Source: a virus (lineage: Duplodnaviria; Heunggongvirae; Uroviricota; Caudoviricetes). Taken from it: a stretch of 46,467 nt of DNA. A model generated the notes under the pieces. That model saw nothing but the letters and a program-made list of their open reading frames with translations. It ran no database searches and was not told where the DNA came from. Location of the stretch: IMG/VR virus record IMGVR_UViG_2778261457_000007, one strand, 5' to 3'. The translations under genes and the position numbers were made by a program. Of this stretch, positions 25,642 to 42,076 are shown piece after piece (within the stretch, counting starts at the first letter, position 1; each line of letters opens with the position of its first letter).

Positions 25642-25912
25642 GATGTTACCGTAGTATGTGAGTATCCATCGAATAGACACCAAGCCAAAAAGCTCCCGAA
25701 GGAGCCTTCATTTTCACTTTTTTAAATCCAACGACAGACGGCTGGCATTTAAGTATTGTGAAATATTATCAAATGTAATCATCATTGATTTACAAAAGAT
25801 ACATTTTGCCCCGAAAGGATTCATGTCAGAAACATCAAAAGATGATGTTCTATACTGGGAACCATGACAACACGGGCATCTAAAGTGAATATGGTTTGTA
25901 ATATTGTCTACC

Positions 25913-26125
25913 TCAAAGCGCCACTACATGAACAGCGGCAGGACCTTTAGGTCCGTTCTCAATACCAAATTCAACTTCCTGATTCTCAGTTAATGTTTTG
26001 AAATCGTTGCTCTGAATTGCTGAGAAATGGACAAACACATCTTTGCTGCCATCTTTCGGCGTGATGAAACCAAAACCTTTTTCAGGGTTAAACCATTTCA
26101 CTAAACCAGTCATTTTGTTAGACAT
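25913..26125 (-). CDS. cspI: cold-shock protein (CspA family)
   Basis: 70 aa [38 protein letters not shown]... with RNP1/RNP2 motifs; long upstream untranslated region. Confidence 0.8.
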
Positions 26126-26487
26126 AATTATTACCTTTTGAAGAAATTAGCCCTTGGGCAGAATGGTCCGAAAAAAAATATCAGAGAGAAAAACCAACAA
26201 GGAAATCTCAAGAGGTACAAATAATAAAATTATAACAATGACTGCTTCAGATAAATTTGTAACAAACCAGAACACCATTAACGCATGATTAACCACCCAT
26301 AGCAAGGATTACTTTTGTAAAGAAAAACACAGCAATGAAAGAATAGCTTTATTTATTAATAAAACGTGTCATTCTGATTAAGACCTTTTATCTTACCCTT
26401 AAGATTTCAGGAATTTTGGCTCATGGAAGAGTCCTTTTTATTTAAATTTTACATTCCGCGATGTAAATGTTCCGATTTAATATTACC

Positions 26488-28432: not shown

Positions 28433-28795
28433 TTGATTTTATTAGTAACAAGTATTTTTTATATTTTAATAATATATTTAAAGCAGATAATAAAAAACCC
28501 GCCTGAGCGGGTTTGAGATTGTGGTGCTTTTTGTGGGAGTCATCCACTTACGCACTTTGTTTTGCGATGCCAGCAGTTAGCTTCTGCTGTGAAACTATTC
28601 ATGCAGCAAACCTGCACTTCACCACAATGGTTAGCATACTTTTCCTGATTAAGATTTTGCCAAATATGCTGGCCATTGTTTCATGTATTGGACCTCCTTA
28701 CTTTTTATTAAAGAGATCCAATATTCACTACTCTGTCCGTATCTCTACTCAGGCATCAGCCTTCTTCGTTATCGTATACAGACGAGCGATGAATT

Positions 28796-29011
28796 TTAAT
28801 CAGTAATGATGACATTTACTGCTGCAGGACCTTTAGCACCACTCTCTATAGAGAAGGTAACCTTTTGACCTTCAAATAAGGTTCGATAATTATCATTCTG
28901 AATCGCAGAAAAATGCACAAACACATCTTTACTACCATCAACAGGAGAAATAAAGCCGAAACCTTTATCAGCGTTAAACCATTTTACTAAACCAGTCATT
29001 TTATTTGACAT
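28796..29011 (-). CDS. cspB: cold-shock protein (CspA family)
   Basis: 71 aa [46 protein letters not shown]... Confidence 0.8.
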
Positions 29012-29321
29012 TCTACATTCCTTAACTTGAGCCTTTCGGCATAAATGGTTTGCATAACAGAAACGACTTCGTACTTAATTGGAGAGACTCAAAGAAGGAA
29101 TAAGTGAATAACACCTGAAATGAGAACTGCTTTAGTAAACTACTTCGTATATCGTCTGTTCTTCAAACCGACGCAGTCATTAACTCATAGTTGAACATAT
29201 GAAGCAATGTTTATTTTAGACATCCAGCCACCTTCAATCCTATCAAAAAAGTAGTTTTCTCCAGGAACGTGTGTATGGTGCACCAGGTTATCAGTATTAA
29301 GGAGTTTTTCTGTCCCCTAAA

Positions 29322-32105: not shown

Positions 32106-32357
32106 TTATTCTCCTGAAAAAGCAGAAAAGCCAGCTTTTATTCCGATCTCTTTCAATGCCTGTAATGAAGTGACAAACTCACCTTCGCGCAAGATAAATC
32201 CGTCCGTGACCCGAGCATCCACAAAATTAATTAACGCAGCCCCATTCTTTCGCAAACACATAATGCGGTAATGACTAACAAGATTTCCATTTTCAACGCA
32301 CACAGCATAGAGGCCATCTTCACAAAAAATTTTACGCAGTTCTTCGATGTTCATCAT
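32106..32357 (-). CDS. rem: hypothetical protein (83 aa), at the position of Qin rem
   Basis: MMNIEELRKIFCEDGLYAVCVENGNLVSHYRIMCL...; symbol assigned from gene order and length (K-12 rem is 83 aa by recall); tentative. Confidence 0.4.
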   Translation of the reverse strand: MMNIEELRKIFCEDGLYAVCVENGNLVSHYRIMCLRKNGAALINFVDARVTDGFILREGEFVTSLQALKEIGIKAGFSAFSGE

Positions 32358-35969: not shown

Positions 35970-36303
35970 GAAAAATCCCCCAGAGAATTGTCTGGGGACA
36001 TTTTAGAATGGTTCAAAGGGGACATTACAGCTTGGTGTTAACAATAGCCTGCTTCTCCGTGCCTTTCGGCACGTAAGAGGCTAACCTACATGTGTCTAGC
36101 ATGAAATTGGCCTCAGATTAATGTTAAGCGTCTTGCAGGACGCGTAATGTTAACTGGGGCTTTTCTCTATCTGCCGTTGGTGTCCATGCCCGAGGCAGAT
36201 AGCCTCAAGCACCCGCAGTCATTCTACTTAACTAAGATTTCCCCGCAAACCGTTTTTGTCCAGCACAGTAAATATCCAACTAAACCAATGGAGTTCGCTG
36301 TAT

Positions 36304-37634: not shown

Positions 37635-37991
37635 TTAAAAAATCAGAACGCCGTGCGGCCTCAACACCCGAAAAGCTTCTTTAAATCTCTGTCGCAAATC
37701 ATCACGCCAGGCATCTTTATTCAGCCGTCCATATTTCTTTCCCATCCAGGCGTTATCACCAACACGCTCAAGATGCGGAGGGTCTAATACAACCATCGAA
37801 AAAGATGCGTCTGCAAATGATAATGCACGAAAATCTGCGATAATGTCAGGGCTGATAATCAAGCGTCTCCCATTGCGTAATGTGTATCCTTCTTTTCTGA
37901 TATCGCTGAATATCGCCCGTTTGTCAGACTTATCGAACCAGAACATGCGGCTGCCACAGCACATATCAAGAATGGTTGCCGGTGCACTCAC
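37635..37991 (-). CDS. small DNA/RNA amino-methyltransferase-like protein, possibly truncated
   Basis: 118 aa with motif-I-like ILDMCCGSRMF and motif-IV DPPH about 55 residues later, then stop; GTG start overlaps the upstream stop (GTGA). Confidence 0.5.
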   Translation of the reverse strand: MSAPATILDMCCGSRMFWFDKSDKRAIFSDIRKEGYTLRNGRRLIISPDIIADFRALSFADASFSMVVLDPPHLERVGDNAWMGKKYGRLNKDAWRDDLRQRFKEAFRVLRPHGVLIF

Positions 37992-39416: not shown

Positions 39417-39918
39417 AATTCCATCCAGCTTTTTGTTGGTATTGCTGTCGATACGCAAGCTTGAAAGCAATTGCTTTTTCTATAAGTTCGTCAGTTTCAC
39501 GATCCACTACGGCAGGATCAGCAAAAAGCAGTCCGGACTCCACCACATCGCCATATTCTTTGTTTAACCCGGCGATCATGCACGTGATGCTTTTTCCGTC
39601 AGTAATTTCACGATACAACCTGAAATCACTAATCCGGATAGCCTCCATAATCGCAGGCACTAGCGCCGTGAACTTTTCACGCTTATCCCTGGTGTCGATA
39701 GCCTTCCAGCGTTCGAATATCTTCACTCGATTAACACCAAGCGCTCGCTGATCAACCGCGCCACCTTCATCTGTGACACGCTGAACATCGATGTTCGGGC
39801 GCTCTTTCAAAGCCCAGAATGCTTCAGTGATTAATATCGTCGCCTGCTCCTGTGTCATTCCTGGTCGACATATCCAGGCATCCAGAGCCTCACGAGCCTG
39901 TTCAGGAGTGATTTTCAT
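39397..39918 (-). CDS. hypothetical protein (173 aa) between dicC and the replication gene
   Basis: MKITPEQAREALDAWICRPGMTQEQATILITEAFWALKERP...; overlaps both neighbours by short stretches. Confidence 0.45.
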   Translation of the reverse strand: MKITPEQAREALDAWICRPGMTQEQATILITEAFWALKERPNIDVQRVTDEGGAVDQRALGVNRVKIFERWKAIDTRDKREKFTALVPAIMEAIRISDFRLYREITDGKSITCMIAGLNKEYGDVVESGLLFADPAVVDRETDELIEKAIAFKLAYRQQYQQKAGWNYEPSFC

Positions 39919-40129
39919 TGTTCAACCGCCCCGCCCGCTTCGTCTTACGATATTCATCATAAACTTTGGGATCATACTGAAGCTCCCCGCCAGATGCCTC
40001 CTGTAGACGCATCGCGCGACCTTCAGGAACCAGTATCCCCCAAGCAGCAACACTTGCCAGCCTCACTCCTGCGGCATTGGCAAGCTTTGTTTTGCTGCCA
40101 AAAAAAGTAATTGCGTCAACTTTAAGCAT
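39902..40129 (-). CDS. dicC: Cro-like regulator DicC
   Basis: MLKVDAITFFGSKTKLANAAGVRLASVAAWGILVPEGRAMRLQEASGGELQYDPKVY...; ATG at 40129 preceded by GAGGGGGG; divergent from dicA. Confidence 0.8.
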   Translation of the reverse strand: MLKVDAITFFGSKTKLANAAGVRLASVAAWGILVPEGRAMRLQEASGGELQYDPKVYDEYRKTKRAGRLNNENHS

Positions 40130-40142
40130 CAAAGCCCCCCTC

Positions 40143-40162
40143 TTGTTAGACTTTTCTAACAT
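40143..40162. promoter_or_regulatory. operator palindrome in the dicC-dicA divergent promoter region
   Basis: TTGTTAGA-CTTT-TCTAACA inverted repeat read directly. Confidence 0.6.
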
Positions 40163-40210
40163 TATTGTGCGCGGGATACCTAAGTCAAGAAAAATTAGAA
40201 TTACCTAACT

Positions 40211-40618
40211 ATGGATACAAGAACCCTGGGCCAGCGAGTTCTGGCGCGACGAAAAGAATTACGCTTAACACAACGAGAAGCCGCGCGCCTCGCTGGAGTT
40301 GCTCACGTCACAATTTCACAATGGGAAAGAGACGAAACCCAGCCAGTCGGAAAACGATTGTTTGCTTTAGCGGATGCTCTGAAGTGCTCACCTACATGGC
40401 TAATGTTTGGTGACGAAGACAAGGCACCAGTGCCTGCACAAGAACTTCATGTGGAAACAGAGCTAACTCCCAACCACAAAGAATTGATCGAATTATTCGA
40501 TGCTCTTCCATCTTCCGAGCAGGAAGCCTTGCTGTCTGAAATGCGCGCAAGAGTAGAAAACTTCAACAAACTCTTCGAAGAAATGCTTAAAGCGCGTAAA
40601 AATAAATCAATAAAATAA
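40211..40618 (+). CDS. dicA: XRE-family repressor DicA
   Basis: 135 aa with HTH (LTQREAARLAGVAHVTISQWERDETQP) and conserved C-terminus EMRARVENFNKLFEEMLKARK; DicA-like by recall. Confidence 0.85.
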   Translation: MDTRTLGQRVLARRKELRLTQREAARLAGVAHVTISQWERDETQPVGKRLFALADALKCSPTWLMFGDEDKAPVPAQELHVETELTPNHKELIELFDALPSSEQEALLSEMRARVENFNKLFEEMLKARKNKSIK

Positions 40619-40653
40619 CATTCTTTTCAAGTGATTAGTTGCGCCCACCCTTT

Positions 40654-40708
40654 TTGTTAGATCAATCTAACAAAAAACACTTGCCTCTCATGTTAGGTTA
40701 TTCTAAAT
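40654..40708. promoter_or_regulatory. second operator cluster downstream of dicA, upstream of ydfA
   Basis: TTGTTAGA-TCAA-TCTAACAA at 40654-40673 plus a degenerate copy TGTTAGG-TTAT-TCTAAAT at 40691-40708. Confidence 0.55.
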
Positions 40709-40786
40709 TATTTTCCATCAAGACACCGCACGGTGTTCTCAGCAAACAGTTCCGCTACCCCGGCGTTAAGGGGAAATGAGGTCAGC

Positions 40787-40942
40787 ATGGATACTATCGA
40801 TCTTGGCAACAGCGAATCTCTGGTATGTGGCGTGTTCCCCAACCAGGACGGTACGTTCACCGCGATGACGTATACCAAAAGCAAAACGTTTAAAACCGAA
40901 AATGGTGCCCGTCGCTGGCTGGAAAGAAACCCAGGTGAGTGA
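40787..40942 (+). CDS. ydfA: YdfA (DUF1391) small protein
   Basis: MDTIDLGNSESLVCGVFPNQDGTFTAMTYTKSKTFKTENGARRWLERNPGE (51 aa). Confidence 0.75.
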   Translation: MDTIDLGNSESLVCGVFPNQDGTFTAMTYTKSKTFKTENGARRWLERNPGE

Positions 40943-40943
40943 T

Positions 40944-41072
40944 ATGGATTTCGACACAATCATGGAAAAGGCTTACGAAGAATACTTCGAAGGTCTTGCC
41001 GACGGCGAAGAAGCTCTCAGCTTCAACGAATTTAAACAGGCGCTTTCCAGTTCGGCAAAATCTAACGGCTGA
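40944..41072 (+). CDS. ydfB: YdfB small protein
   Basis: 42-aa ORF MDFDTIMEKAYEEYFEGLADGEEALSFNEFKQALSSSAKSNG, starting 2 nt after the ydfA stop. Confidence 0.65.
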   Translation: MDFDTIMEKAYEEYFEGLADGEEALSFNEFKQALSSSAKSNG

Positions 41073-41101
41073 TAAGCGAAACAGCACCGCGAGGAATCAG
41101 T

Positions 41102-41320
41102 ATGCAGAAACGAGAACCCGTCATCATCGCGCCAGACTATACCGATGATGAACTTTATGAGTGGATGCGCCAGAAAATTAATGCAGCGCAGGATTTGAAA
41201 TGGGCCAATGAAACCAGGGCTAAGCAGGCTGAAAATCTGTCCGCTCTGGAGCAGGATATCACCAATCTGGAAAAAGCAGCGGCATTAAGCATTGCCAGAA
41301 TGATTACATACCCGCGTTAG
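41102..41320 (+). CDS. ydfC: YdfC small protein
   Basis: 72 aa MQKREPVIIAPDYTDDELYEWMRQKINAAQDLKWANETRAKQAENLSALEQ... Confidence 0.75.
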   Translation: MQKREPVIIAPDYTDDELYEWMRQKINAAQDLKWANETRAKQAENLSALEQDITNLEKAAALSIARMITYPR

Positions 41321-41660
41321 TAGCTAATCAACAAAGCTAAGGTTAGTAATTAAGGAGTTCTCCACGGGTGAGGTGGAGTGCGTGCGCCGGACACGGGTGA
41401 GCATCCGGCACTGACAGTTTACTGAAAGGATATTTCCCTGAAAAGTCAGACCATAACGCGAAAGCGCACGGCGAGGTAGCTGGTTCATAGATAGCCTGTC
41501 GTTAAATTTTCGTCGACCGTGCGCTTCCGGTTGTGGCAACCCGCGAAATGGCGCGGCGGTAAGTATGGCGGGGTTATTCCTTCCCCGTTGAGGACACCGG
41601 GTTGTCAGGTTGACCATACGCTTAAGTGACAACCCCGCTGCAACGCCCTCTGTTATCAAT

Positions 41661-41713
41661 TTTCTGGTGACGTTTGGCGGTATTAGTTTTACTCCGTGAC
41701 TGCTCTGCCGCCC
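41661..41713 (+). ncRNA. dicF: DicF small regulatory RNA
   Basis: TTTCTGGTGACGTTTGGCGGTATTAGTTTTACTCCGTGACTGCTCTGCCGCCC followed by TTTTT; matches DicF from memory apart from one position. Confidence 0.85.
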
Positions 41714-41887
41714 TTTTTAAAGTGAATTTTGTGATGTGGTGAATGCGGCTGAGCGCACGCGGAACAGTTAAAACCAAAAACAGTGTTATGGGTGGATTCT
41801 CTGTATCCGGCGTTAATTGTTAACTGGTTAACGTCACCTGGAGGCACCAGGCACTGCATCACAAAATTCATTGTTGAGGACGCGATA

Positions 41888-42076
41888 ATGAAAACGTTAT
41901 TACCAAACGTTAATACGTCTGAAGGTTGTTTTGAAATTGGTGTCACTATCAGTAACCCAGTATTTACTGAAGATGCCATTAACAAGAGAAAACAAGAACG
42001 GGAGCTATTAAATAAAATATGCATTGTTTCAATGCTGGCTCGTTTACGTCTGATGCCAAAAGGATGTGCACAATGA
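41888..42076 (+). CDS. dicB: cell-division inhibitor DicB
   Basis: MKTLLPNVNTSEGCFEIGVTISNPVFTEDAINKRKQERELLNKICIVSMLARLRLMPKGCAQ (62 aa); GAGGA upstream of the ATG. Confidence 0.85.
   Translation: MKTLLPNVNTSEGCFEIGVTISNPVFTEDAINKRKQERELLNKICIVSMLARLRLMPKGCAQ

Follow-up and report, generated by a model that had tools for sequence, protein, structure and literature searches.

Four conserved dyads around dicA are probable operators of the immunity switch in a Qin-like prophage of Escherichia coli

Introduction

The stretch of DNA analysed here (the window: 46,467 nucleotides, IMG/VR virus record IMGVR_UViG_2778261457_000007) is a Qin-like lambdoid prophage of Escherichia coli. Its repressor gene, dicA, is flanked by four 20-bp dyads with the consensus TTGTTAGR-N4-YCTAACAA: two of them (sites A and B) lie between dicA and the divergently transcribed, Cro-type gene dicC, and two (sites C and D) between dicA and the ydfABC-dicF-dicB operon (Table 1). 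Judged from the sequence of the window and from comparison between genomes, the four dyads are very probably the operators of the immunity switch of this prophage; what sites B and D each contribute is less certain.

Four dyads in a 2+2 layout

A first-pass annotation of the window had described three copies of the pattern TTGTTAGA-N4-TCTAACA as bracketing dicA. Without mismatches the pattern (TTGTTAGANNNNTCTAACA) occurs at two loci of the window only, 40143-40161 and 40654-40672/40655-40673, the copy at the second locus being identical on either strand. In dinucleotide-preserving shuffles of the whole window, 0.00 copies of this exact 19-mer are expected. With up to three mismatches there are 6 strand-matches versus 0.77 expected, and the core TTAGR-N4-YCTAA occurs four times, exclusively at sites A-D, versus 0.10 expected. 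Chance is excluded by these shuffles as the source of the dyads, and both palindromes of the first-pass annotation, at 40143-40162 in the dicC-dicA intergenic region and at 40654-40673 downstream of dicA, stand as described.

The two remaining dyads are more degenerate. A repeat search revealed a third copy (family D1; CCTCTCATGTTAGGTTATTCTAAAT) at 40684-40708, which shares 72% identity with the first copy across 25 nt, and an inverted partner of this third copy (I1; 83% complementary over 23 nt) at 40187-40209, just before the start codon of dicA. The repeats reported as three are hence real and are situated around dicA, but their number is four, the additional copy residing at 40192-40211 and completing a 2+2 layout; the degenerate copy downstream of dicA exists as well, but it extends over 40690-40709 and not over 40691-40708. 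The final base of site B is the A of the dicA ATG. Site C can be extended to a palindrome with 12-nt arms (40651-40662 and 40665-40676), the centre of which is ~53 bp upstream of the predicted start of dicBp, the promoter of the ydfABC-dicF-dicB operon.

When all window positions were scored as 20-mers for their match to TTGTTAG-N6-CTAACAA (maximum 14), site A obtained 13/14 and site C 14/14, and a score of at least 10/14 was reached at only 10 of 46,448 positions. A third operator, as described in the literature on E. coli K-12, was found in neither intergenic region at 10/14 or above. Apart from the sites, the one match with up to three mismatches, at 37921 (11/14), falls into the chance tail of the scores, inside a pseudogene region, and was rejected as a further site.

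Conservation and covariation across genomes

With an alignment of DicA, 57 loci were collected from reference genomes. The 2+2 layout recurs around dicA homologues in ~25 enterobacterial genomes, and the positions of the sites are conserved in Escherichia, Citrobacter, Buttiauxella, Serratia, Rosenbergiella, Yersinia and Rahnella. In loci with a ..SQWE recognition helix, the sites are positioned at -68/-69 and -19 from the dicA ATG, 35-42 bp past the stop codon, and a further 34-36 bp downstream. Site A keeps its offset of -68/-69 in ~25 loci, site B that of -19 in most loci of the TTAG type, and site D its distance of 34-36 bp from site C in 11 of the 12 loci for which site D was tabulated (the call for one locus, L023, is unreliable). 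The divergent dicC partner is present in nearly all loci, ydfA in those of Escherichia and Shigella only. Since the downstream sites are kept where the downstream gene is not ydfA, they are part of the repressor module and not of ydfA.

Repressors with other recognition helices (..SLWE, ..FKWE) are accompanied by other dyads at the same places, each repeated downstream of its own dicA: ATTGAG-TTTT-CTCAAT is found with ..SLWE, and CCTTAGG-type dyads in an Enterobacter/Pantoea group. For 15 representative loci, every upstream site was scored against every downstream region, and the sum for the cognate pairs was compared with 20,000 permuted pairings. The cognate sum is 348, whereas the permuted pairings give 306 ± 7 and attain it in 0 of 20,000 cases, a figure that is an indication and not a probability because the comparative loci are related, several of them closely. 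In every locus tested, the cognate scores are above those of a control stretch inside dicA. That the two sides of dicA are read by the same proteins finds its strongest support, among the data available here, in this joint variation of upstream and downstream sites. The suggestion of the first-pass annotation that one repressor system governs the ydfABC-dicF-dicB operon as well as the dicC/dicA switch is backed by the conservation of the sites, by their covariation and by the published work on K-12 discussed below.

The palindrome at 40651-40676 might alternatively be an RNA hairpin that terminates the dicA transcript rather than a protein-binding site, as it would form an 11-bp RNA stem 33 nt past the dicA stop codon. 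This is highly improbable, and the terminator reading was dropped: a U-run follows the palindrome on neither strand, it is missing from the results of the terminator scan, and the folding of the region is unremarkable (z-score -1.5). Its half-site is moreover that of site A, with which it covaries in other immunity types, while the arms are imperfect in several loci, indicating that the conserved feature is the half-site and not base pairing.

Promoters beneath the sites

The arrangement of the dyads relative to the predicted promoters is consistent with a role as operators. For dicC, a promoter scan of 39900-41000 yielded a single sigma-70-like site, dicCp, which ends inside site A; from the spacing of its hexamers, transcription into dicC would start near 40154, within site A. 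The predicted dicBp was located by inspection: a TTGnnn-17-TAAnnT arrangement followed by C(C/T)CATC(A/G)A is conserved across many loci, including those with a downstream gene other than ydfA, and K-12 has TTGACC-17-TAATCT at the aligned place. The predicted start is near 40717, in the conserved CCATCAA. Site C adjoins the -35 hexamer of dicBp on its upstream side, and site D extends across its spacer and -10 hexamer.

The terminal base of site D is a T in 11 of the 12 tabulated loci and provides the T at -7 of the -10 hexamer, whereas sites A and C mostly end in A. Site D, though degenerate, is not decayed: its right half also serves as the -10 hexamer of dicBp, and the operator consensus CTAACAA would leave this hexamer without its essential last T, which can account for the degeneracy. 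A similar double duty may apply to site B, which contains TAGAAT (40196-40201), a candidate -10 hexamer of the dicA promoter (dicAp) that ends 9 nt before the dicA ATG; K-12 has TAGCAT instead. The centre of site B, ATTA or ATTG, is conserved across loci, whereas the centres of the other sites vary. Sites B and D may thus be the weaker matches because each shares bases with the -10 hexamer of a promoter. A reading of the sequence before the dicA ATG revealed no Shine-Dalgarno sequence, and dicA is likely transcribed from a weak promoter with a TAGNAT -10 hexamer into a near-leaderless mRNA. The cI mRNA of lambda is leaderless. The same has been reported for paaR2, the repressor gene of prophage CP-933P (PMC8630535).

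Regulators of the sites

In the Qin prophage of K-12, a lambdoid-like immunity locus with operators in the dicA-dicC and dicA-dicBp intergenic regions was described by Bejar et al. 1988, according to the account given in PMC10448788. The K-12 operator Oc (TTGTTAGTCATAACTAACAA), to which site A is equivalent, is bound by DicA in vivo, and an A16-to-C change in Oc abolishes binding; furthermore, K-12 DicA represses dicC and stimulates its own expression (PMC3441716). Deletion of dicA increases the expression of an ectopic dicBp-lacZ fusion 22-fold, deletion of dicC is without effect, and overexpression of Rem, the antirepressor of DicA, derepresses dicBp 165-fold (PMC10448788). In chromatin immunoprecipitation sequencing (ChIP-seq), the strongest K-12 DicC signal comes from the dicC locus itself, binding sites were deduced to flank dicA on both sides, and induction of DicC lowers dicA RNA 48- to 84-fold (bioRxiv 10.1101/2024.09.21.614188). 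Binding of Oc by DicA, repression of dicBp by DicA and occupancy of both sides of dicA by DicC have been demonstrated by others and in K-12 only; by extension, the DicA and DicC of the present allele would bind sites A-D. The base corresponding to A16 is present in all four sites of the window.

Several points, in addition to the relatedness of the comparative loci, weigh against reading all four dyads as operators of the switch. The predicted dicBp matches the consensus in only 8/12 positions, which is below the threshold of the promoter scan, where it is unlisted, and it was placed by conservation rather than by a mapped 5' end. The spacing of sites C and D, 34-36 bp, does not correspond to whole helical turns, so that simple side-by-side cooperativity is not obvious. 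A survey from 2020 lists the DicA site at dicB as low-evidence and of unknown location (PMC7567609). Finally, K-12 DicA failed to bind the weaker predicted sites at the dicA promoter, Om and Oa, alone in vivo (PMC3441716); because Om and Oa were unbound when tested alone, site B, and perhaps site D, may not bind DicA unaided.

Some of these data would also fit a different division of labor, in which sites B, C and D are mainly DicC sites, DicA acts via site A only, and repression of dicBp is indirect or involves other contacts. The isolated Om and Oa sites left unbound by DicA (PMC3441716) and the unknown location of the DicA site at dicB (PMC7567609) are in line with it, as is the fact that DicC, and not DicA, was seen directly on both sides of dicA by ChIP-seq in K-12 (bioRxiv 10.1101/2024.09.21.614188). 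Derepression of the ectopic dicBp-lacZ fusion upon deletion of dicA and its indifference to deletion of dicC (PMC10448788) nevertheless point to DicA. Site C is also closer to the consensus than site A, the equivalent of the DicA-bound Oc. Moreover, repressor and Cro share operators in the switches of lambda and P22. A predominant assignment of sites B, C and D to DicC is hence improbable, and operators shared by DicA and DicC are preferred.

A further question is whether the two pairs of sites act together. Oligomers of DicA might bridge sites A/B and C/D, which are ~511 bp apart, into a DNA loop akin to that between OL and OR of lambda, and such a loop might be required for tight repression and for autoregulation of dicA. 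The 2+2 layout around a short repressor gene is conserved at near-constant spacing, the conserved C-terminal helical region of DicA could mediate oligomerisation, and PaaR2, the related repressor of CP-933P, octamerises and has operators on the PL side (PMC8630535). Constant spacing is, however, a trivial outcome of the conserved length of dicA, and K-12 DicA still represses the ectopic dicBp fusion without an A/B region nearby (PMC10448788). A DNA loop seems rather unlikely.

An exchangeable immunity cassette

Alignment to K-12 Qin reveals a diverged block at ~40013-40721, with 33-83% identity, between nearly identical flanks (93-100% in 39653-40012; 90-100% in 40722-41381 except for one 80% stretch, 40812-40841). 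The block extends from the middle of dicC to the predicted start of dicBp and contains all four sites. Such sharply bounded divergence bears the signature of an exchangeable immunity cassette, inside which the operators would travel together with dicA. The repressors share 57% identity, and the DicC proteins 86%; most of the differences between the latter fall in the N-terminal part, which binds DNA. DicC is in fact chimeric: its N-terminal half is new, its C-terminal half identical to that of K-12.

The sites themselves differ in a manner that follows the repressor type. In the five loci of the window type (VAHVTISQWE), position 8 of the dyad is a purine in 18/20 sites and position 13 a pyrimidine in 20/20; in the four loci of the K-12 type (ISHVSVSQWE), position 8 is a pyrimidine in 16/16 sites and position 13 a purine in 16/16. 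A single swapped base pair beside the TTAG core, R/Y here and Y/R in the K-12 class, may therefore separate the two immunity types. From this pattern, this prophage and K-12 Qin are probably hetero-immune, and positions 8 and 13 are likely to contribute to the difference in immunity.

The antirepressor does not follow this exchange: Rem of the window is 100% identical to K-12 Rem, against only 57% for DicA. Rem either aims at the conserved C-terminal part of DicA or is unmatched to this repressor.

Proposed mechanism

The sites and promoters could operate in the following manner: In the repressed state, a DicA dimer with its P22 C2-like helix-turn-helix (HTH) domain would occupy site A and block dicCp at its -10 hexamer and start, keeping dicC off. 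On the other side of the repressor gene, DicA on sites C and D would block dicBp at the spacer and -10 hexamer, with site C assisting from upstream, so that ydfABC-dicF-dicB is off. Known triggers of DicA inactivation in K-12 are Rem, heat and urea. Upon inactivation of DicA, DicC would be made and bind to the same set of sites. Site B, which overlaps the candidate -10 hexamer of dicA and its start codon, is likely where DicC, or DicA in excess, would lower the expression of dicA. The predicted -35 hexamer of dicCp falls within the spacer region of the predicted dicAp; the stimulation of dicA by DicA reported for K-12 could, speculatively, be relief from this promoter competition.

Likeness to known switches

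The closest relative of the system is K-12 Qin. Shared features are the gene order (ydaT-like gene, dicC, dicA, ydfABC, dicF, dicB), the half-site core TTGTTAG..CTAACAA, the four site positions (1266, ~1316, 1778 and 1813 of locus L001 for K-12), the identical Rem and the nearly identical flanks. The window contains what characterizes a DicA/DicC system of the Qin type: dicC and dicA are divergent, with an Oc-type dyad, site A, in between; related putative operators are situated at the predicted promoter of ydfABC-dicF-dicB; and a short repressor devoid of an S24 domain is accompanied by rem. Apart from the repressor sequence and the swapped base pair, the two prophages differ in site C, which is a perfect palindrome here and degenerate in K-12 (ATGTTAGCTATAGCATACAA).

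The relationship to P22 is apparent at the level of the protein domains. The nearest solved structure to the HTH domain of DicA is the N-terminal domain of P22 C2 (1adr_A, 1.3e-18; 2r1j_L, 3.6e-18; residues 1-71), the alignment over 71 residues including ..V.ISQWER.ET.P, and DicC belongs to the P22_Cro family. As in the operators of P22 immC, the dyads consist of two half-sites around a 4-bp centre. A distant relative, L038, carries AATTAAAG-N4-CTTAAATT, which we take to be near the P22 operator consensus. In contrast to P22 C2, DicA (135 aa) lacks a C-terminal self-cleaving domain; there are two operators per promoter region instead of three, and the half-site is TGTTAGR, unlike that of P22, presumably ATTTAAG.

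With lambda CI/Cro the system shares the divergent repressor/cro pair, common operators overlapping a rightward promoter, the repressor's own promoter and a leftward early promoter, and probably a near-leaderless repressor mRNA. The operator sequences are unrelated, and the layout is 2+2 rather than 3+3: in place of the three tandem operators at OR and OL of lambda and P22, two recognisable sites are present per side. A RecA-cleavable domain is likewise missing: Pfam detects no Peptidase_S24 domain, the RecA-stimulated self-cleaving domain of such repressors, in DicA of the window, and the C-terminal 65 residues form a short conserved region that is not of the S24 type. In K-12, induction proceeds via the antirepressor Rem (PMC10448788).

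PaaR2/YdaS of CP-933P in E. coli O157:H7 occupies the same genomic position as dicA/dicC, and it also exhibits footprinted palindromes over PR-like and PRM-like promoters, more operators at a PL-like promoter past the repressor operon, and a leaderless repressor gene (PMC8630535). It differs in the repressor family, the half-site (GTTTAGTAA), the four equally spaced intergenic palindromes and the co-transcription of the repressor with a toxin-antitoxin pair (PMC8630535).

A structured leader RNA next to the operators

A conserved structured element at the beginning of the predicted dicBp transcript adjoins the operators and is not part of them. Its parts are, in order, a hairpin with a lineage-variable stem sequence, a conserved CTCAG with an A-rich run, the sequence GTTC and a second, small hairpin, CGCY..RGCG, whose C-rich loop (CCCC in CGCY[..CCCC]RGCG) can pair with a G-run (GGGG) 4-5 nt downstream, forming a pseudoknot, and this pairing is also found as CCCT/AGGG, GCC/GGC and GCCG/CGGC. 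In a model-based alignment, 88.7% of cells pair, versus 28-44% with the structure slid, and two-sided changes occur at four pairs. At least 56 distinct versions of the leader were found in genomes and IMG/VR contigs, with varied downstream genes, and also in active phages such as mEp460; the leader accompanies immunity regions of the DicA type whatever the downstream genes.

A search of 40100-40900 against Rfam gave no family match, even with E values up to 10 admitted, and at the Rfam gathering threshold DicF is the sole relevant match. The covariance model, run with its filters off, detected no second, PR-side copy in the window that would correspond to the putL/putR or nutL/nutR pairs. A relationship to HK022 putL was considered and rejected: similarity to the HK022 PL region is not evident, and HK022 is absent from the BLAST matches of the leader. 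In the literature, no report on ydfA/dicF and antitermination was found. The region upstream of ydfA might constitute a two-layer control module, an operator-covered promoter followed by a conserved hairpin-plus-pseudoknot RNA, possibly a novel cis-acting element of the early-left transcript, a reading we regard as a long shot. One possibility for its function, offered as a guess, is a put-like, protein-independent antiterminator that enables read-through of the DicF terminator to dicB and to exo/xis/int.

Further elements accompany the leader in other loci. In Citrobacter/Buttiauxella (L005 ~2060-2100, L007, L015), the leader is followed by a hairpin, AGCGCCC-TACT-GGACGCT, and then by a boxA-like CGCTCTTTAACAA, so that the transcript of these loci may also contain a nut-type site. 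A different conserved stretch of ~130 nt (...GAGTTACCCG...AAGTAGCCAGCCCGAGGCA.A.GAACATGACGGC...) separates the operator-covered promoter from the leader element or first gene in L024 (~2000-2100) and L038 (~2090-2230).

Gene content and feature map

The 1.6 kb around dicA are 100% identical to chromosomal prophage DNA in many E. coli strains, and at least 80% of this region is present in 101 of 5,426 complete E. coli genomes (~2%). Collinearity with a RefSeq record of the identical locus covers the window from 30710 onwards; the order annotated in this record is rem, hokD, relBE, the replication genes, a YdaT-family gene and a Cro/CI family regulator, followed by an HTH protein, ydfA, ydfB, ydfC, dicB, ydfD, exonuclease, xis and int. 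The dicC homologue is labelled Cro/CI family regulator or DicC in the identical E. coli record. Pfam, Rfam and the RefSeq annotation concur with the first-pass identification of dicC, dicA, ydfA, dicF and dicB (Table 1). Other Rfam matches, all on the - strand (457-655, 25886-26271, 28749-29172 and 36043-36214), comprise an IS009 RNA, two cspA-type thermoregulator leaders of prophage cold-shock genes and the sok antitoxin RNA of hokD.

Table 1. Positions of the dyads, predicted promoters, leader RNA, immunity cassette and genes in the window
Feature	Position	Strand	Sequence, basis or remark
Site A (equivalent of K-12 Oc)	40143-40162		TTGTTAGA-CTTT-TCTAACAT; exact pattern match; over dicCp -10 edge and predicted start
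Site B	40192-40211		AAATTAGA-ATTA-CCTAACTA (whole: AAATTAGAATTACCTAACTA); repeat search and core count
Site C	40654-40673		TTGTTAGA-TCAA-TCTAACAA; exact pattern match; perfect palindrome
Site D	40690-40709		ATGTTAGG-TTAT-TCTAAATT (whole: ATGTTAGGTTATTCTAAATT); repeat search and core count; over dicBp spacer and -10
dicCp (predicted)	40161-40188	-	-35 TTGACT 40188-40183, 16-nt spacer, -10 AATAAT 40166-40161; 10/12 positions
dicBp (predicted)	40681-40709	+	-35 TTGCCT 40681-40686, 17-nt spacer, -10 TAAATT 40704-40709; sequence inspection
Conserved structured leader of predicted dicBp transcript	40712-40780	+	Covariance model, 78.8 bits; single copy in window
Putative exchangeable immunity cassette (N-terminal half of dicC, sites A and B, dicA, sites C and D)	40020-40720		Alignment to K-12 Qin
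dicC homologue (75 aa, Cro-type regulator)	39902-40129	-	Pfam P22_Cro, 4.9e-12
dicA homologue (135 aa repressor, N-terminal HTH domain)	40211-40618	+	Pfam HTH_3, 1.5e-14
ydfA	40787-40942	+	Pfam DUF1391, 1.3e-27
ydfB	40944-41072	+	Member of operon 40787-42076; RefSeq annotation of identical locus
ydfC	41102-41320	+	Member of operon 40787-42076; RefSeq annotation of identical locus
DicF RNA	41662-41713	+	Rfam DicF, 70.8 bits
dicB	41888-42076	+	Pfam DicB, 1.9e-40
rem (antirepressor of DicA in K-12)	32106-32357	-	83-aa open reading frame

Implications

The control architecture has already been published for K-12 Qin; what this prophage offers is a new allele of that system. The operators themselves matter little in this respect; the leader RNA, which is without annotation, is the sole item with real discovery potential. 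What the comparison adds is confirmation, for a second immunity type, of the K-12 scheme that controls the toxic division inhibitors dicB and dicF. It provides (i) a phylogenetically supported map of the repressor sites at dicBp, the location of which was unknown in the 2020 survey (PMC7567609), (ii) an explanation for the weakness of two of the sites, namely the bases they share with -10 hexamers, and (iii) a proposal, open to test, that positions 8 and 13 of the dyad determine specificity in cross-immunity among prophages of the Qin type.

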